Assembly (NCBI GenBank): GCA_958296135.2
Contig: CATQHZ020000001.1
Coordinates: forward strand, 1,248,001-1,312,000
Source: an uncultured Poribacteria bacterium
GTDB lineage: Bacteria > Poribacteria > WGA-4E > WGA-3G
Length of the DNA: 64,000 nt
Reading direction: 5' to 3'
In this document: positions 3,538-63,212 of the stretch, in pieces
Position numbering within the stretch: the first letter of the stretch is position 1
Layout of the letters: every line of letters begins with the position of its first letter
Made by a program: the position numbers and the translations under genes
Notes under the pieces: model-generated
What the model was told of the DNA's origin: nothing
Seen by the model: the letters and a program-made list of their open reading frames with translations, nothing else
Database searches by the model: none

Positions 3538-3574
3538 TTTAGTTTCCTTGCGGGCTAGCGTTAGTCCTGATACG

Positions 3575-3779
3575 CACCTATCGGGACAAGGATGTCCCTC
3601 CTACCGAAAAGGCCTATCGGGACCAGGAGGTCCCTCCTACCGCATGTGCACCTAGCGGGACCGGGAGGTTTCTCCTACATCGAGACCAGGAGGTTTCTCC
3701 TATGGAATGCTCACCTATCGAGACCAGGAGGTCCCTCCTACGGAATGTGCACCTATCGAGACCGGGAGGTCTCTCCTAC
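3575..3779. repeat. Cluster of six GTAG-family REP-like palindromes
   Basis: Units like CACCTATCGRGACCRGGAGGTYYCTCCTAC (reverse complement GTAGGAGGGACCTCCTGGTCCCGAT) with short, related spacers. Confidence 0.85.
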
Positions 3780-3793
3780 TGAAGGCACTGCGC

Positions 3794-4255
3794 TCAGAAA
3801 TAGGTTTGCTCGCCGCCGTAATGACGTTCTGCCTTCGGGCGTTCGTCAAATTGCCACGGCCAGTTGACAGGAATAATGCCCTCGTCAAAATAGGTGTCGG
3901 TTATCTGCCAGAATTGCAGGCGCGGGTAATGCCTACCGTTATGTGCCAGTGTGCCTTCTTCTTCAGCAAGGTTTCGCATGCCGCGCGTGACAGGATGCAA
4001 GGTGATGAAAATGCCGATGGCGGCGTTTGCGTCTCGCATCGCTGTGCGGAAGGCTCGCACCTGATTCAGGTTCAAACTCTTCCCGGATTTTACCTCTGCA
4101 ATGATAGGCAATTTCGTTTGCGCGCCCTCAGCGAGGAAGATGTTATAGTTGCGTCCGCTGTTGTAAGGCGGATCGAGATAACATATATGGTAGCTGCCAC
4201 TTTCCATCTCTCGCATGACATTGAGGTTGTCGCCGAAGTAAAGTGCGTTTTTCAT
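3794..4255 (-). pseudogene. Internally deleted DNA methyltransferase/Mrr-like fusion
   Basis: YFGDNL...DPPYNSGRNY joined directly to AEVKSG...GIFITL...YPRLQFWQI; the paralog at 26662-28150 has about 340 more residues between these segments. Confidence 0.8.
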
Positions 4256-4290: not shown

Positions 4291-5018
4291 TGTAGGCGGC
4301 CTCTCTCTACCGCGGAAACCGAAATCGCTTTGTTGGGAACACTAATCCTGCTGCGTTGCCTCGTTGCGTTTTTCGGCGGGGGTGGGTTCGGTGAAATCGT
4401 CGCCGGCGGCTTCGGCTGTCCGTCGGCGTGCTTCCCATTCAGCCCACTCACGGTTCGCAAGTTCTCTGCCGCGTGCTTCACCGATTGCCTCGCCGATTGC
4501 CTCGCGTATCTTCTGCCGCCGCTCAATCTGCTCCTTGATTAAACCGTATAAAATCATCGGAACCTCCACAAATAAAAATAAAATCAGAACGGGAATAGCC
4601 AGTGCCGTTGGAATACATCCCGTGGTATCAACGACAATCGCCCGCAATTGTAGGCGGCATCTTTCTACCGCGGAAACCGAAATCGCTTTGTTGGGAGCAC
4701 TAATCCTGCTGCGTTGCCTCGTTGCGTTTTTCGGCGGGGGTGGGTTCGGTGAAATCGTCGCCAGCGGCTTCGGCTGTCCGTCGGCGTGTTTCCCATTCAG
4801 CCCACTCACGGTTCGCAAGTTCTCTGCCGCGTGCTTCGCCGCGTGCTTCACCGATTGCTTCGCCGATTGCCTCGCGTATCTTCTGCCGCCGCTCAATCTG
4901 CTCCTTGATTAAACCGTATAAAATCATCGGAACCTCCACAAATAAAAATAAAATCAGAACGGGAATAGCCAGTGCCGTTGGAATACATCCCGTGGTATCA
5001 ACGACAATCGCCCGCAAT
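4291..5018. repeat. Direct tandem duplication (358 bp at 4291-4648; 370 bp at 4649-5018)
   Basis: Near-identical copies that differ by a few substitutions and one 12-bp repeat unit. Confidence 0.95.
4342..4557 (-). CDS. Stand-alone 71-aa copy of the C-terminal module of the upstream membrane protein
   Basis: GGAGG-TTCCG-ATG; MILYGLIKEQIERRQKIREAIGEAIGEARGRELANREWAEWEARRRTAEAAGDDFTEPTP... Confidence 0.65.
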   Translation of the reverse strand: MILYGLIKEQIERRQKIREAIGEAIGEARGRELANREWAEWEARRRTAEAAGDDFTEPTPAEKRNEATQQD

Positions 5019-5182
5019 GTCTCATAGCCGGTCCAGCCTTTTGACAAATGATAGTTAATTGCCATCCCGCCATAAACTGAGATAAGGGCACAAAAGATGA
5101 GTAGCGCGGTACCTACCCATCCGCGCCGAACACTGAAAAACTGCACCCGGTCTTTGTCTTTGGGCTGTTCATTCTGCTTCAT
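4700..5182 (-). CDS. Hypothetical 2-TM membrane protein (160 aa) with GEAI/GEAR repeats and a W-xx-W...F-x-EP tail; internal SD+ATG at 4927
   Basis: AGGAGGAGG before ATG 5182; two hydrophobic segments followed by a charged helical C-terminus. Confidence 0.85.
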   Translation of the reverse strand: MKQNEQPKDKDRVQFFSVRRGWVGTALLIFCALISVYGGMAINYHLSKGWTGYETLRAIVVDTTGCIPTALAIPVLILFLFVEVPMILYGLIKEQIERRQKIREAIGEAIGEARGEARGRELANREWAEWETRRRTAEAAGDDFTEPTPAEKRNEATQQD

Positions 5183-5219
5183 GCACTGTTTCCTCCTCCT
5201 CTCAATGGAGGTATATTGC

Positions 5220-5248
5220 ATTGTAACACAAAATGACGTGGATGTCAA
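5220..5248 (-). promoter_or_regulatory. Sigma70-type promoter for the 2-TM gene
   Basis: TTGACA-17 nt-TACAAT with a TG extension. Confidence 0.7.
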
Positions 5249-9240: not shown

Positions 9241-10392
9241 GACTTCAACCGTCGGTGGGTTGATGAAATCGTGATATTTCTGCGCCACTTTCCCGACGGT
9301 TGCGTCGCCTGCATGAATCAGCACGCGGAAACGGAAGTGCATCTCCTCGCCTTGCTTCAAGGTGTAGGAACCGTCTTTGGATTTATCCCCCTCAAAGGTG
9401 CCGCCGCCAAAGATGTTGCTACCCATCAGCCCGTAGTTGCGGACGTGCCAGTACGTCGGATACCGCGGGTTGACGAGATGGTCGAACACGGCGATGCCGA
9501 CAGGGGTGCCATCAACTACGCCGGAATAATCGCACCAGTGGGCGCGCTTGCCCCAGGTTTCACCTTCGTTGATGCCGCCGAACGCGTTCTCTATCTTCCC
9601 GCTATCAGAGGCGTTCATTGACGGATGCACGCGGATGGACATGATGCCCCCCTCTTTGGTATCGCCAAAATGGACATCTCCGATGGAGGCGATGAAGGTT
9701 AAATCCAGATCGAGCAGCGCGGCATCTTCCGGCAAATTGTAGATGCGGAAGTTCTGCTTATCCGCCATCAGGATGTCACCTTCGCGCGTCTCCCAGGTGT
9801 TGTCAGTATAAAGCCTGCCGACGACAGAACCGCCGTGCTTTTCGGTAAATCCTTGGTGGACGACCCGGCCGGAGTTGCTGCCTTCCCCCCAGAGATCTAC
9901 GTCATTGACTTCGCCGTAGGCGACATAGAGGGAGCGGTGATGCACGTGGTCCTTCGAGATGTCGCTCGTTTCACCGCGTGTCACTTCGCGTCCTTCGGGC
10001 CCCAAAACTGGGAAGAAATAGGGGCGAAACTGCGCCTTGCCGTATCGGAAGGTTGTGAAAGGTCTGCTGTTGAGCGCGACCTCGATTGTCTCCGCCTCGT
10101 CCTTTAATTGAACGCCAGCATCTTCTGCAACGGTTCCCTCCGAGAGGGTATAAGTGCGCGAGGTGCCGGCGGCGAGGCCATTGAGTATCCATGTTAAGGT
10201 GGTATCGGTGCCATTGTCGCTGGCGTAGCACTGTGCTGCGATGACATCGCCGCTCTCTGCATCGGTTAGGACAACCTCGCGGTTTGCGAATTGGCTGATG
10301 CCGGGATGGCTGACAGTGACGTTAACGGGGCATCCATCCCTGTCGTGGAAGCCCGCGTTCACGGTGAGTGTCGGGCTATTCTGATGTGCCAT
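9223..10392 (-). CDS. DUF6807 (so-called PmoA-family) protein
   Basis: RPYFFPV, DHVHHRSL, FGDTKEGG, WGKRAHWCDYSG, YPTYWHVRNYGL. Confidence 0.82.
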   Translation of the reverse strand: MAHQNSPTLTVNAGFHDRDGCPVNVTVSHPGISQFANREVVLTDAESGDVIAAQCYASDNGTDTTLTWILNGLAAGTSRTYTLSEGTVAEDAGVQLKDEAETIEVALNSRPFTTFRYGKAQFRPYFFPVLGPEGREVTRGETSDISKDHVHHRSLYVAYGEVNDVDLWGEGSNSGRVVHQGFTEKHGGSVVGRLYTDNTWETREGDILMADKQNFRIYNLPEDAALLDLDLTFIASIGDVHFGDTKEGGIMSIRVHPSMNASDSGKIENAFGGINEGETWGKRAHWCDYSGVVDGTPVGIAVFDHLVNPRYPTYWHVRNYGLMGSNIFGGGTFEGDKSKDGSYTLKQGEEMHFRFRVLIHAGDATVGKVAQKYHDFINPPTVEVTGPRA

Positions 10393-10519
10393 AAATCTCC
10401 TTTTCCACATTACCGTAGGGCGAGGGGACGTTTCTTCGTCTGGCCCTCGCCGTGCGACGATTTGGAAACGCGGGAGGCGCGAATGCGTGTTCGCGTCTAC
10501 CCGAATCAGTCGGGAGTTT

Positions 10520-10870
10520 TTAACTATCCGCAGTCATCGCGACGATCGCTTCATCCTCGGTCTCGTATGTCTCGAAGACAGTCATCAGCCGTCCGAGGAC
10601 GAGGAGGTTTCTGATGTGCGCGCCGGCGTTGACGAGTGCTGTGCGCCCACCTTTGCGGGAGGTAGTGACGTGCGCGGAGACCAGGGTGCCGAGCCCGCTA
10701 CTATCCATCCGGGTGACAGCCTCCAGGTTAAAGAGGACCTTGGGTGATTCAAAGTGTTCCTCGAGTTCCTCGCTAATTTGCTGTCGGAGTTCAGCGTTTG
10801 CTGCCCCGATCATGCGTCCGGTGGGTCGAATGACAATGATGCCTTCTCTTTGACGTATTTCAGCTAACAT
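10520..10870 (-). CDS. STAS-domain anti-sigma factor antagonist
   Basis: VTRMDSSGLGTLV motif; 116 aa. Confidence 0.92.
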   Translation of the reverse strand: MLAEIRQREGIIVIRPTGRMIGAANAELRQQISEELEEHFESPKVLFNLEAVTRMDSSGLGTLVSAHVTTSRKGGRTALVNAGAHIRNLLVLGRLMTVFETYETEDEAIVAMTADS

Positions 10871-11187
10871 TTTTCTTCCTTTCGTGTTAACGCAATGTGA
10901 GTTTGCGTAAGTCCTGAAAATTAAAAGGTTACGATAAGGTTTGTGAAAAAACCTATTTTTATTTTATATGATTTCTATATTTTTGTCAACATGAGAGTTG
11001 TTTCATTTTAGTACGATTCAGTTTTCACAATTTATCGCCTCTTTGTAGGTGAAGTTCTCCCGATTTTGACCTGGTTGATTCGGGTTGTTTCCCAAACCGC
11101 GTGTCTTTCTGGTAGGGTGAGGGCTTGTCCCTCGCCGTGCGATGGGCGGTTGCGGGGGACAGGCCCCCGCGCTACGTTCCAAGGAGA

Positions 11188-11949
11188 TTATGGCATCAGT
11201 ATTGCGCGAACTGTCTGTCGGATTTCGGTGCAGATTCGCATTGCGTGCTCAGCGTCAGTGGCAGTCGCGAAATAGCCGGGGTACCGAGAGTCCACGGCGT
11301 GTTTGGTAAACTGTGAAAAGTCGTCGCGCCATCTGTTCCACGCGGGAAGCACCGGCACAATCAAATCCAGCAATTCCTCCAAATTGTGCGTCCTCGGCAC
11401 TGGGCGGTTTGTCTCTTGCAACCACGCCTTGAGGTACTTTTCTATTGTCTGTTGTGCGTGGAAGCAAATGTTGTCGTAGTTCGGTTTCGGTGCTTGCTGA
11501 AGCCATTTTGCGTCGGCATAATCGCCTTCGGCTTTCTCTATATACTCAAGTGTCAACGGGTTCACGAATGCCGTCTCCTTATCGTGCAATTGGCTTATTT
11601 CCCGCGTTGTTTCCAAGAAATCCTTGAGGTGGCCCCCGGATTCATAAAGCACGTTTCCTTTTTCAAGGATTTCGCGCAGAAACCAATCGTTATATGAGAT
11701 GCGATAGGCGATTTCCTCGGGTGAACGAACGTGCAAGTCCATGCGGAATCGGCGTGGGACCCGTCGTTGAATCTCCAATTTCTGCTGGTGCGTCTCCGAT
11801 TTCGGAATCGGCATGACTACCAGCAGATCGACATCGGAGTGTTCTGTCGGCGTTCCGTAGGCATAGGAGCCGAAGAGGATAATTTGGAGCGGTGCGAATT
11901 CGCGCACGATGTCATCACAAGTGGCTTGAATGTCAGTTAGGGGTATCAT
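11188..11949 (-). CDS. Fused minimal nucleotidyltransferase (MNT)-HEPN protein, toxin-antitoxin-like
   Basis: LFGSYAYG...SDVDLLV in the N-terminal half; ICFHAQQTIEKYLKA, RTHNL and SRYPG in the C-terminal half. Confidence 0.88.
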   Translation of the reverse strand: MIPLTDIQATCDDIVREFAPLQIILFGSYAYGTPTEHSDVDLLVVMPIPKSETHQQKLEIQRRVPRRFRMDLHVRSPEEIAYRISYNDWFLREILEKGNVLYESGGHLKDFLETTREISQLHDKETAFVNPLTLEYIEKAEGDYADAKWLQQAPKPNYDNICFHAQQTIEKYLKAWLQETNRPVPRTHNLEELLDLIVPVLPAWNRWRDDFSQFTKHAVDSRYPGYFATATDAEHAMRICTEIRQTVRAILMP

Positions 11950-11973
11950 GTTCTGTTCCTCCTTTTTTGTAGT

Positions 11974-12639
11974 CTAGCATGGAGGCGCGACAAATGTCAA
12001 CCGCTTAGTTATTGGCTCTGGCGATATTCGACTAATGCTGACCTGCCGGTAATTGCGACGATGCGCGCCATCAATTTCAGTGCTTAACAGCGGTTTCCAG
12101 AGTGCTTCATTTAAAGTTCCGAATCCGGTTTCTGGGACCGGTTGTTTGTCAAACCAGAGGAAGCGTGCCTGTCCGCGTCGCTGTGCCAAACGGAGTTGCT
12201 CGTCGCGTGGCATCTTGCGCTTTGTGCTTCCGACGCGGAGATAACTGCCGCCCGGGCTTTCGTGCACGTCGGATCCTTGCGGGACTGCAACGAGGAGGAA
12301 CGGTTTGCCTGCCTCTACTTCTCTGCGAAGGATAGTGGGACGAATCGGCGGTTTAATCGCGTCGGTGCAGAGCTCCACCAATATTCGCTCAAGTGCGTCC
12401 ATCTGCTCGCGCGACATGCCTTGGACTTCGCCGCTGTCGGTTACGCCGCAAAGTACGGTGCCGCCCTCTGTATTCGCAAAAGCGGCGCATTCGTCTGCGA
12501 GTTGATCGCGACGAGGGCTCTTGGGAACGTTGCCTGCGAATTCGATTTGCTTGAATTCCCAGTAGTTGTCCTCGCCGAGGCGCAATTGGCGGCGGAGCTC
12601 TTCGTTACTGAATTTTTGTGCGGTTGCAGTGTTCATCAT
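11974..12639 (-). pseudogene. AlbA_2 (Schlafen) domain protein, probably C-terminally truncated
   Basis: GEDNYWEFKQ, AAFANTEGGTVLCGVTD, YLRVGST; the sequence after LWKPLLSTE loses family character. Confidence 0.7.
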
Positions 12640-12685
12640 TCAAGGCAGAAGCATTTAGTTTTTGGGGCGAACGCCATTTTTTTCG

Positions 12686-12746
12686 GTAGGAAGGACCTCC
12701 TGGTCCCGAATCTGAAGCATCGAGACGCGGGAGGGCTCTCCTACCG
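12686..12746. repeat. Convergent GTAG-REP pair
   Basis: GTAGGAAGGACCTCCTGGTCCCGA...TCGAGACGCGGGAGGGCTCTCCTAC. Confidence 0.75.
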
Positions 12747-12761
12747 ATGAGGCAAAGCTGC

Positions 12762-14219
12762 TCAACGGCCTGCAGATGGCGGTGGCGGCCAATGAAGCCC
12801 GCGCTGTCCCGATAACGCGCGGTTGGGAGAGGGACGATAGGCTCTGTCGGGTAAACCAACGAGGGCACCGTCTTGCACCCAGTTTTCATCGCCGCCGTAG
12901 AGCTCACCGATGAGATGGTTCGTCAAGCGTTCAACGGTGTCGGCGTGCGCAGGTGAACTAGCGAGGTTATGCAATTCCCTCGGGTCTTCTTGCAAATCGA
13001 AAAGTTGCAGGTAGTTGCCGGTGGCGTAGTAGATGAGTTTGAAGCGGCCGTCGTGAATCATGCGCGTCGCGTTCGCGCCTTCGCTACATTCGCCGTATAG
13101 CCATTCCCGTTTTTCGTCGCCTACCATGGGGATGCCTACGACCGTTTCTGGGATGTCAATCCCGGCGAGGTGGAGGAGCGTGGGCATCACGTCTTGCCAC
13201 CCGACGAGTCTGTCATCAACGCGGTGATGCCCGACGCGTTCATCGCCAGCGGTGCCGACGAGGAGCATCGGGACGTTGGCGGAGTCTTCGTAAAAGAGCC
13301 GTTTCGCCCACAACTGATGGTTGCCGAGCATGTCACCGTGGTCGGATGTGAAGAGGATAAGCGTGTTGTTGAGCATGCCTTCTTCGCGCAGTGTGCCGAT
13401 GACGACGCGCAACTGATGATCGATGTGTGTGCAAAGTGCATAAAAGGCTTGGCGCGCAGACCTCACCAGGTCTTCGGTGAAATGTGCGTCTTGCAGCTGA
13501 CGCGTTTTTAACGGCCACGGCAAATTTTGGGTATCGGCTGCCCATTCGCCGCAATACGGTATGTCCACGCCGGTATCGCGATACATGTCCATGTAGCAAT
13601 GCAGCGGTGCCAAGGGGGGATGCGGGTGGCAGTAGGAGAGATACCAGAACCCTGGCCGAGTTGGGTCGCGGCGTTTGAGCATGCGCACCATTTGTTGCGT
13701 GCTCCAGTTGGTGACGTGGCAGTCTTCGGGGAGGTGCCAGGGGCGGTTGAGGTAATCGTTGTTGCACATGCCGCTGGCGAATTGCTGGCCTGCGTAGCCC
13801 CGGTCGCCGAGGAACAATTCGTAGTCGTCAACTACGCCGTGTTGCAGTCTGCCTTCTTCGCCGAGGATGACATCGTCAAATCCGATGCGGTTGCGCTGCG
13901 GATGGACGTGCAGTTTGCCGACAGCGTAGGCTTGATACCCGGTTTCCCGAAAAGTCTGTGCGATTGTCGGGAGGCCGTTTAGTCCTTGTCTGTCGTTGAA
14001 AACCCGGTCTTTGTGGGTGCGCGGCGGCGTGCCGGTCATGAGGGTTTTGCGCGCGGGGACGCAGACCGGGCATTCGCTGTAGCCGCGCGTGAAACGTGTG
14101 CCGGCACGCGCGAGCGCGTCTAACGTCGGCGTTTGGATCTTCGGGTGCCCGCTGACTCCCAAGAGGGAGTTGGGCCAGTGGTCTGTGGTGATGAGCAGGA
14201 CGTGCGGTTTTTGGTTCAT
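12762..14219 (-). CDS. Formylglycine-dependent sulfatase (choline-sulfatase-like)
   Basis: CVPAR (CxPxR), GKLH, HPHPP, TSDHGDMLG. Confidence 0.93.
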   Translation of the reverse strand: MNQKPHVLLITTDHWPNSLLGVSGHPKIQTPTLDALARAGTRFTRGYSECPVCVPARKTLMTGTPPRTHKDRVFNDRQGLNGLPTIAQTFRETGYQAYAVGKLHVHPQRNRIGFDDVILGEEGRLQHGVVDDYELFLGDRGYAGQQFASGMCNNDYLNRPWHLPEDCHVTNWSTQQMVRMLKRRDPTRPGFWYLSYCHPHPPLAPLHCYMDMYRDTGVDIPYCGEWAADTQNLPWPLKTRQLQDAHFTEDLVRSARQAFYALCTHIDHQLRVVIGTLREEGMLNNTLILFTSDHGDMLGNHQLWAKRLFYEDSANVPMLLVGTAGDERVGHHRVDDRLVGWQDVMPTLLHLAGIDIPETVVGIPMVGDEKREWLYGECSEGANATRMIHDGRFKLIYYATGNYLQLFDLQEDPRELHNLASSPAHADTVERLTNHLIGELYGGDENWVQDGALVGLPDRAYRPSPNRALSGQRGLHWPPPPSAGR

Positions 14220-62494: not shown

Positions 62495-62935
62495 GTGAAA
62501 GAGCAGCGGATATCGCTCTTAAGTCTCAGACAAGTCTGGGAGAAGCCGGGCATTTTTATCTTTTTGGCTCAAGTCATCGTGTTTTATATTATCGTCGGGC
62601 ATCACGAAATCGGAAAGGGGATTGGGTTCGCCGAGACGCTCATCGCTATCTTTGGGCATGTCACACTCTTCATTCCCGTTGCGATTTTCCACACGATGCT
62701 CATCACTGAATTAGGAGGTTGGCTGATGATTAAGTATAGAATGTTCATGGATGAGCGCGCGCAGCGCATTGCTAAGGCGGAAGCTAAGGGGAAAGCGGAG
62801 GGCATCGCCGAGGGCATCGCCGAGCGCGACCGGGAGTGGGCGGCGTGGAATGAGCGGCGGCTGGCTGCGGCGGCGCAAGGACAACCGTTTGATGAGCCAC
62901 CGCCGTTGAATACGCCACCTGCACCCCCGCAATAA
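62495..62935 (+). CDS. Hypothetical 2-TM membrane protein (146 aa) with GIAE repeats and a W-xx-W...F-x-EP tail; internal SD+ATG at 62726
   Basis: AAGGAG before GTG; tail REWAAWNERRLAAAAQGQPFDEPPP resembles that of the 4700-5182 protein. Confidence 0.85.
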   Translation: MKEQRISLLSLRQVWEKPGIFIFLAQVIVFYIIVGHHEIGKGIGFAETLIAIFGHVTLFIPVAIFHTMLITELGGWLMIKYRMFMDERAQRIAKAEAKGKAEGIAEGIAERDREWAAWNERRLAAAAQGQPFDEPPPLNTPPAPPQ

Positions 62936-63014: not shown

Positions 63015-63212
63015 ATGATTAAGTATAGAATGTTCATGGATGAGCGCGCGCAGCGCATTGCTAAGGCGGAAGCTAAGGGGAAAGCGGAGGGCATCGCCGA
63101 GCGCGACCGGGAGTGGGCGGCGTGGAATGAGCGGCGGCTGGCTGCGGCGGCGCAAGGACAACCCTTTGATGAGCCACCGCCGTCAAACACTCCATCTGCG
63201 CTATCGCAATAG
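63015..63212 (+). CDS. Stand-alone 65-aa copy of the C-terminal module
   Basis: GAGG-TTGGCTG-ATG; near-identical to 62726-62935, lacking one 12-bp unit and with a diverged 3' end. Confidence 0.75.
   Translation: MIKYRMFMDERAQRIAKAEAKGKAEGIAERDREWAAWNERRLAAAAQGQPFDEPPPSNTPSALSQ

Follow-up and report, generated by a model that had tools for sequence, protein, structure and literature searches.

Does a gene for a small membrane protein also encode a second, soluble protein from a start codon inside its own reading frame, and do the truncated copies behind it serve as additional genes for that second product? The question is raised by a locus, here called locus A, at positions 4,291 to 5,248 of a 64,000-nucleotide stretch of DNA (the window) from an uncultured Poribacteria bacterium (assembly GCA_958296135.2, contig CATQHZ020000001.1, positions 1,248,001 to 1,312,000 of the forward strand). 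A first-pass annotation had described a 160-amino-acid (aa) minus-strand gene with its own TTGACA/TACAAT promoter, an internal GGAGG-TTCCG-ATG at 4937-4925 that would open a 75-aa module, and a tandem duplication that retains this module. Comparison of locus A with its relatives in two phyla suggests that the internal start is a general property of a protein family and that the partial copies act as separate genes for the short form. The features on which the argument is built are listed below.

5220..5248, minus strand: sigma-70-type promoter of locus A, TTGACA and TACAAT separated by 17 nucleotides (nt), with an extended -10 TG (11 of 12 matches)
5192..5199, minus strand: Shine-Dalgarno (SD) sequence GGAGGAGG of the full-length start, read directly
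4700..5182, minus strand: full-length gene, 160 aa, ATG at 5182-5180 and TAG at 4702-4700, read from the sequence
4933..4937, minus strand: internal SD-like GGAGG, 5 nt (TTCCG, 4932-4928) before the internal ATG
4925..4927, minus strand: conserved in-frame internal start, Met86, an ATG at the end of the second hydrophobic segment
4700..4927, minus strand: open reading frame (ORF) of the 75-aa module (soluble stalk plus head), nested in the full-length gene
4291..4648, minus strand: tandem partial copy of 358 base pairs (bp), duplicating 4649-5018
4342..4557, minus strand: module-only ORF, 71 aa, with its ATG at 4557; the GGAGG (4567-4563), the ATG and the stop are retained

When the sequence was re-read, all coordinates of the full-length gene and its promoter held, and the internal GGAGG-TTCCG-ATG with its 75-aa module proved to be correctly placed. 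The 3' end of the 16S rRNA of the source genome (...CACCTCCTTTCTA) was used as the reference for anti-SD duplex energies, and the internal GGAGG of locus A gives -10.5 kcal/mol.

Relatives of the gene are numerous. A six-frame search of the source genome detected 16 matches at 10 family loci, and matches were present in 53 of the 61 genomes of the same taxonomic family, with up to 28 per genome. A profile made from the ten paralogues was searched against 1.84 billion proteins, clustered at 50% identity; it retrieved 1,425 representative clusters at E <= 0.001, and 400 of these also passed E <= 1e-10. Scanning named genomes for the tail motif gave 229 relatives, the best 80 of which comprised 10 from Ca. 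Poribacteria and 70 from metagenome-assembled genomes of Dehalococcoidia, Chloroflexota or Chloroflexi. The isolate labels of several relatives resemble those of sponge or coral metagenome bins. Databases hold no name for these proteins: Pfam returned no family at E <= 1 for four family proteins, none of 21 close homologues carries a Pfam label, NCBIfam gave nothing above the curated cut-off for the family proteins, and the ESM Atlas contained only clusters of unnamed 'hypothetical protein', most frequently from Chloroflexota. No family match was found in phage and plasmid collections, and viral contigs yielded a single marginal match of 15 residues. A narrow literature search found no published description of the family. 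The locus set examined in the following consists of 119 loci, namely the ten of the source genome, 29 of its taxonomic family and 80 named ones.

Conservation of the internal start was analyzed in 104 full-length frames from these 119 loci, each with at least two transmembrane (TM)-like segments before the tail. A Met (ATG) lies within 3 residues of the aligned internal position in 97 frames, and the remaining seven have GTG (6) or TTG (1), each behind a GGAGG-like motif. A start-capable codon is therefore present in all 104, and the internal start is general in the family, not confined to locus A and its paralogue B, where it was first noticed. The three partial copies that lack the ATG carry GTG, TTG and TTG. 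Within family genes, GTG makes up 26% of the Val codons and TTG 20% of the Leu codons; the probability of an all-GTG/TTG outcome by chance, calculated for the full genes only, is about 2e-4, which is optimistic because the sequences are related.

The SD signal was scored as the duplex energy between the 17 nt upstream of a codon and the 16S 3' end of the source genome. The median energy at the internal start was -10.2 kcal/mol, and 62 of the 97 frames reached -9 or lower, a value reached by 5.0% of 13,530 codon positions elsewhere in these genes and by 2.5% of 4,650 internal ATGs within long ORFs of the source genome. The purine-rich motif is encoded by varied peptides, including V-E-V-P, G-G-W-L, G-G-I-D-F-I, Q-G-V-D-F-V, K-E-A-V-D-I and E-G-G-D-I. 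Among full genes without a partial copy in the fetched flanks, 74 of 77 have the ATG and 47 of those 74 have an SD energy of -9 or lower. The signal is equally strong with or without a nearby partial copy and holds in both phyla, so the internal start does not appear to have been carried over from the partial copies. Furthermore, the 65-89-aa proteins predicted by gene callers start exactly at the internal Met in 10 of the 12 short representatives fetched. An in-frame internal start and its ribosome-binding site are kept among homologues in the way expected for the SpaO/YscQ type of gene. Based on this comparative evidence, we consider the internal start very probably real.

The tandem copy at locus A was equally well described by the first-pass annotation, whose 358-bp duplication, retained SD, ATG and stop, 71-aa ORF and counts of differences were all confirmed. 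Positions 4291-4648 align with 4649-5018 in two ungapped blocks of 95% and 98% identity, and the offsets of these blocks (358 and 370) show that the partial copy is one 12-bp unit shorter. The junction at 4648/4649 has only ACA as microhomology. Apart from the 12-bp unit, copy and parent differ inside the module by two synonymous changes and one Thr/Ala change; over the wider set of 101 aligned codons there are three synonymous changes and one non-synonymous change. No terminator-like site was found between the full gene and the partial copy.

A tandem repeat of this length (358 bp) is open to mis-assembly. The duplication was compared with contigs assembled separately from four public runs, all of one sample. 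A 75-nt contig (4619-4693) crosses the novel junction, with 30 and 45 letters on its two sides, in three of the four runs (X1, X2 and X3), and read depth on the contig of the collapsed repeat exceeds that of the flanks by a factor of about 1.6 (74.8 versus 45-48 in X2, 209.5 versus 125-136 in X3). Since the four runs represent a single sample, which is probably the source of the assembly, this read support is not independent. Nevertheless, several bases and one 12-bp unit distinguish the two copies, and dozens of other assemblies show this layout. The probability that the duplication is an assembly artefact appears negligible.

A second occurrence lies close to the other end of the window.

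62495..62935, plus strand: full-length paralogue of locus B, 146 aa, 33% identical to A, between ccmA and ccmB
63015..63212, plus strand: module-only ORF of locus B, 65 aa, a partial copy starting 3 aa upstream of the conserved Met

The first-pass annotation had recognized that locus B shares the layout of locus A and that the N-terminal TM regions of the two are divergent. Both statements were borne out, as the membrane part varies strongly between them. In locus B, AGGAGG is followed after 7 nt by the ATG at 62726, with an energy of -11.4 kcal/mol, and this is the strongest site in the frame. The junction of the locus B copy is also found in another Poribacteria genome (L059).

Partial copies are a recurrent property of the family. 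Four of the ten loci of the source genome have them downstream (one each at A, B and E, two at C). Classified by coverage of a hidden Markov model (HMM), the 119 loci contain 120 full, 52 partial, 4 intermediate and 6 tail-less frames. A partial copy was found at 42 loci in two phyla (29 of 70 in Chloroflexota, 10 of 39 and 3 of 10 in Poribacteria), and 36 loci have both a full and a partial copy. From loci A and B alone, the first-pass annotation had argued for a selected architecture rather than chance duplication, a claim that these counts strongly support and that was understated. The shared elements it had listed, i.e., the 4-aa repeat, the W-x2-W/F-x-E-P tail and the downstream extra copy, recur throughout the family; the junctions vary, and nearly all copies keep the internal start.

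Junctions were taken from protein-level comparison with the neighbouring full gene together with the HMM classes. Homology of the copy to its parent begins exactly at the Met in L017 (twice), L018, L074 (twice), L083, L106 (twice) and L125, and for most other copies it begins 2-12 aa upstream of the internal start. A few copies begin 20-60 aa upstream, including those of loci A (32 aa) and E (26 aa). Thirty of the 56 partial or intermediate frames start at HMM states 75-89, where the internal start corresponds to state 87. The junction sequences differ (ACA in A, ATGA in G001 and G007), and the differences between lineages indicate that the partial copies arose in separate events. At L112 and L125 the start position reads GTG or TTG in the parent and ATG in the partial copies. 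Of 35 copies that follow another copy, four have an ATG that overlaps the preceding stop codon (-4 or -1 nt, of the ATGA/TGATG type), and 13 have it 7-38 nt past that stop.

The pooled ratio of non-synonymous to synonymous substitution rates (dN/dS) for partial copies against their parents was 0.36 (44 pairs, with 641 synonymous and 878 non-synonymous differences). Full genes compared with each other over the same region gave 0.33 (109 pairs), and a freely drifting copy would be expected at about 0.66. Retention can also be followed at locus C, which is located between ftsA and ftsZ. All three genomes of the genus have this site occupied, with partial copies. Among less closely related genomes, the 15 in which both ftsA and ftsZ were visible have a spacer of 192-757 nt and no family gene in it, and a family frame was present in none of 22 ftsA-ftsZ loci from outside the genus. 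This genus-only placement suggests that the cassette was inserted once and that its modules were kept, or rebuilt with different junctions, through speciation. Taken together, the sequence comparisons indicate that the partial copies are probably functional genes.

What the two products would look like was approached with an AlphaFold2 model of the 160-aa protein, computed from an alignment of 85 diverse members (mean predicted local distance difference test score 91.2). The model contains a short N-terminal hairpin, a helix at residues 20-47, a five-residue loop, an unbroken helix at 53-139, a loop at 140-148 and a final helix at 149-159. The parts of the protein are positioned on the window as follows.

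5042..5125, minus strand: TM1, residues 20-47, a helix in the model with a hydrophobic sequence
4928..5026, minus strand: TM2, about residues 53-85, running unbroken into the cytoplasmic stalk helix in the model
4826..4873, minus strand: G-x-x-x tetrapeptide (12-bp) repeats, four units of EAIG/EARG, variable in copy number
4736..4804, minus strand: conserved head W127-x2-W130..R133 R134..A137..G141..F144-x-E146-P147-x-P149, composed of invariant alignment columns

Because charged residues are present at both ends of the hairpin, both termini are placed in the cytoplasm, and we infer an N-in/C-in hairpin of two TM helices. In the model, the stalk comprises about 55 residues after TM2 and holds the tetrapeptide repeats and the W-x2-W..RR segment. 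Across the family the repeat units read EAIG, EARG, KAEG, RAEG and the like, from 1 to more than 15 of them, and close homologues range from 148 to 176 aa, each tetrapeptide gained or lost shifting the length by 4 aa. The invariant or nearly invariant residues of the 85 diverse members all lie within the head, and its loop at 140-148 in the model carries the G..F-x-E-P-x-P motif. The proline triplet is not invariant, since the A-type proteins have EPTP or EPNP. A Foldseek comparison with the PDB returned no rows at E <= 0.001, only weak ones (phage tail proteins and HtrII), and the best E value of a PDB sequence search with the tail profile was 3.7. Complex prediction for the full-length protein with the module gave a score of 0.27 against a mark of 0.32 and was used as evidence neither way.

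In our proposal, the product of each gene is a small protein of the inner membrane whose N- and C-termini both lie in the cytoplasm. TM2 would extend as a long cytoplasmic stalk with a variable number of G-x-x-x units, ending in the W-x2-W-N-x-RR..A.A.G.PF.EP.P head. The SD-like site and the start codon at the cytoplasmic end of TM2 would allow internal initiation, and their conservation suggests that one gene gives both an anchored long form and a soluble short form made of stalk and head. The tandem partial copies would be extra working genes for the short form, co-transcribed and sometimes translationally coupled with the full gene, which would raise the ratio of short to long product. On present evidence we favour this combination, a two-product gene accompanied by functional mini-genes for its short form, as the reasonably probable explanation of the sequences. 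How the two forms would act on each other can be stated only tentatively. The short form may pair with the stalk of the long form along a glycine stripe, producing mixed stalks with both anchored and unanchored chains, or it may compete for the ligand of the head; either pairing or competition would set the amount of a cytoplasmic partner held at the membrane. Changes in repeat number, through slippage of 12-bp units, would set the distance of the head from the membrane.

Several observations weigh against this proposal. Resampling of synonymous codons was weak (P between 0.03 and 0.43 across the ten paralogues), which implies that the amino acids themselves (G-G, E-V, E-G-G) account for much of the SD-likeness, and these residues could be a structural motif at the end of a helix. 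In many members GGAGG and ATG are 11-13 nt apart, above the usual optimum, and three of the ten paralogues (D, E and G) have weak sites of -6.8 to -6.9 kcal/mol. A short product of the full-length mRNA is something we infer from sequence. The 119 loci come from related genomes and hence are not independent, and the full and partial classes were set by crude TM and HMM criteria. Gene conversion from the parent could hold copies open and lower dN/dS without selection; together with the crude method it weakens the dN/dS test but does not reverse its outcome. A few copies are frameshifted or cut past the start (L051, L055, L057 and L058). Such points lead to an alternative in which the copies would be non-functional remnants around the 12-bp array, kept open by their youth and by gene conversion, with the Met and the G-G/E-V motif marking the structural end of TM2 and not a start site. 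The arrays are clearly slippage-prone, as the unit number differs between adjacent copies, and within a species the copies resemble their own parent (B versus L059), suggesting concerted evolution; the decayed copies and the weak resampling test agree with this explanation as well. However, it does not account for the restriction of non-ATG codons at the position to GTG and TTG, nor for the gain of ATG in copies whose parents have one of these. The junctions cluster just upstream of the start despite their different sequences, the dN/dS value is below that expected of a neutral copy, the SD signal is as strong in genes without a nearby copy, and copies have been retained in three species at ftsA-ftsZ. 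We therefore regard it as improbable that the copies are mere by-products.

Two further explanations accept the copies as meaningful and assign them other roles. The long form could be membrane-active, like a holin or a toxin, and oligomerise through its stalk, with the short form capping and neutralising it; such a poison/antidote cassette, close to the neutralisation between modules that the first-pass annotation implied, would be selfish or addictive, which would explain the many copies, the insertions into operons and the presence in two phyla. The number of matches per genome, the autonomous unit of promoter plus gene, the insertion into the conserved ftsA-ftsZ and ccmA-ccmB operons, the occurrence in two phyla and the small 2-TM protein with a charged C-terminus all fit this explanation. 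So does the 4-nt stop/start overlap of some copies, an arrangement frequent in toxin-antitoxin operons. It is set against a neighbourhood of housekeeping genes in which neither lysis nor defence genes were found, and against the empty searches of PADLOC and PHROGs and of the phage and plasmid collections, the marginal viral-contig match aside. In addition, 74 of the 119 loci have no partial copy in the fetched 1.5-kb flanks, and orthologous positions are stably inherited, for instance in six Dehalococcoidia genomes. We give the poison/antidote explanation only a small chance of being correct. A broader version, in which the gene would be a one-gene 'anchor plus decoy' or 'poison plus antidote' cassette that makes a membrane-anchored effector and, from the internal start, its soluble counter-form, with the ratio tuned by copying the counter-form out as coupled mini-genes, seems rather unlikely to us, and the same judgement applies to its spread as such a cassette into ftsA-ftsZ, ccmA-ccmB and hyuA-hyuB across two phyla that seem to share a habitat. 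If it were true, the cassette would be a bacterial counterpart of one-gene drivers such as wtf; the wtf genes of fission yeast are one-gene poison-antidote drivers. Alternatively, the partial copies could be silent donors for gene conversion that vary the stalk length or the head, in the manner of pilE/pilS. Adjacent copies do differ mainly in repeat number, and concerted evolution is suggested, yet donors need neither a start codon nor an SD, and here these are kept or gained and some overlap the upstream stop. There is little diversity beyond the repeat number, each locus has only one or two copies, and no recombinase or recombination signal sequence was seen at the loci, so that a silent-cassette role is very improbable. 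The two-product gene with mini-genes for its short form remains the explanation that we prefer.

Two other candidates were dropped. For a diversity-generating retroelement, there were few differing sites, no adenine bias was seen, and no reverse transcriptase was present among the neighbours. An arrest peptide or leader, suggested by the W/R-rich segment and the prolines, is at odds with the variation in the proline triplet and with the lack of a conserved gene downstream.

The genomic context of the family was analyzed at several levels. DNA homology between paralogous loci runs from about 70-130 nt ahead of the start codon as far as the stop and no further, and no terminal repeats or transposase were seen; judged by sequence, the unit is an autonomous cassette of promoter plus gene. 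The ten loci of the source genome lie in housekeeping settings, i.e., between ftsA and ftsZ, between ccmA and ccmB, after minC-minD, and beside lpxK/lpxB, holA, a hisS-like gene, moeA and ggt, with DUF1549/DUF1553, dockerin and cohesin genes also near source-genome loci, which fits a member of the Poribacteria. For the named loci, 100 of 158 flank ORFs were compared with Pfam. Their neighbours are likewise metabolic or housekeeping genes, and the family gene often splits operon partners (hyuA and hyuB, ccmA and ccmB, an ABC permease and its binding protein, EF-P and exonuclease VII). In six Dehalococcoidia genomes it occupies an orthologous position upstream of a class-V aminotransferase and is stably inherited there.

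These surroundings do not support the small defence-like island that the first-pass annotation had suggested. Only two of the 100 flank ORFs have a defence flavour, one SocA-like and one TaqI-like; six family proteins had no PADLOC match below E 0.016, and PHROGs gave none at E < 0.005. The decayed methyltransferase beside locus A, which had prompted the suggestion, is a real remnant, although its significance for defence was not upheld and its presence looks incidental. The ORF in question (3794-4255, minus strand, 153 aa) begins with about 40 residues of a DNA methyltransferase (DPPY motif; PADLOC MTase_II, E 2.8e-5), which then join a weak Mrr_cat-like segment (Pfam E 4e-4, just under the cut-off). 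From its sequence, the ORF appears to be what is left of a larger restriction-modification gene once an internal stretch was deleted. At 11191-12639 (minus strand), 6-7 kb from locus A, a protein with HEPN and nucleotidyltransferase domains adjoins a Schlafen/AlbA_2 protein; no other defence-like pair was seen close to the ten loci.

Other observations concern the neighbourhood of individual loci and the genome as a whole. Two tandem clusters, L020 (G023) and G003:C1:4577955-4580741, contain at least six family copies within 3-10 kb and mix two subtypes as well as full and partial copies. In P0132, P0065 and P0162 a single frame has two stalk-head modules or two heads, constituting natural read-through fusions of tandem copies. 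At L131 (G000:C1:4781000-4797000) and L133 (G000:C1:4826000-4842000), genes of the TnpB/OrfB_IS605 type and a fragment of an IS200-like Y1 transposase lie a few kb from loci J and I; none is near the other eight loci. Just upstream of locus E, at L127 (G000:C1:41000-60900), there are two histidyl-tRNA-synthetase-like ORFs (9988-11739 and 12479-13966 in the numbering of that locus), probably hisS and hisZ. Positions 3570-3817 of the window contain about six 38-bp units with a hairpin core of the GAGACC-GGGA-GGTCTC type. The 23-nt core of this unit has 332 copies in 191 clusters on the main contig and none on contigs C2-C4. A link with the family was rejected, as the unit occurs within 1.5 kb of one of the ten loci, compared with 19% of random positions; it is a genome-wide element resembling repetitive extragenic palindromic (REP) sequences, unconnected to the family. 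Contig C2 (144 kb), which lacks this element, has 36.8% G+C against 54.4% on the main contig, while C3 has 67% and C4 60%; these three contigs may be plasmids or mis-binned foreign DNA.

Internal initiation as such is known in bacteria; the novelty lies in the family, in how strongly sequence comparison supports the internal start, and in the short form having been copied out repeatedly as mini-genes in two phyla. Bacterial internal starts amount to a handful of studied cases and are hard to spot from sequence, and the present one is unusually well supported, with the partial copies acting as a natural annotation of a hidden product. An unnamed, multi-copy family located within core operons is likely to matter to the cell biology of Poribacteria and Dehalococcoidia, or else to be a new selfish cassette.

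By analogy, the closest known principle is the pair of long and short products of SpaO, YscQ and HrcQ in the sorting platforms of type III secretion, which likewise have an SD and a start codon inside the ORF that yield a separate C-terminal protein, one that acts together with the long product. There is no relation in sequence or fold and no type III secretion context. Our family differs in that its putative long form is anchored in the membrane and that tandem genes for its putative short form have been copied out repeatedly as well. Further cases of internal initiation are CcmM (M58/M35), ClpB, IF2 and CheA. Holin/antiholin pairs arise from dual starts a few codons apart at the N-terminus, and both of their products are membrane proteins. 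They resemble our family in being small 2-TM proteins with a charged C-terminus and two products from alternative starts; in contrast, the second start of our family follows TM2 and would give a soluble product, and the loci have neither a phage or lysis context nor a PHROG match. Compared with the pilE/pilS silent cassettes, the copies keep or gain a start and an SD and differ little beyond the repeat number.

For the architecture of the long form, the b subunit of ATP synthase and HtrII are comparable, in that a membrane helix runs into a long cytoplasmic helix with a binding end. TM2 and the stalk resemble this layout, and HtrII was among the weak Foldseek rows, none of which was significant. 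The stalk repeats recall those of FliH/YscL, described as AxxxG(xxxG)mxxxA repeats of very variable length that are probably helical and possibly make helix-helix contacts (PMC2674601). The G-x-x-x runs of our family are rich in E, K, R and A, predicted to be helical and variable in unit number. NCBIfam FliH models match only the repeat segment of paralogues I and F and of P0069 (best 58.2 bits against a cut-off of 293), and the locus A protein itself has no FliH match. A C-terminal domain like that of FliH is missing from the family, and neither flagellar nor type III secretion genes were found next to the ten source-genome loci or among the 100 flank ORFs elsewhere. The resemblance is one of repeat type only, not of membership, and it makes the family a second natural system, after FliH/YscL, for long G-x-x-x-G helices that change their length by slippage.

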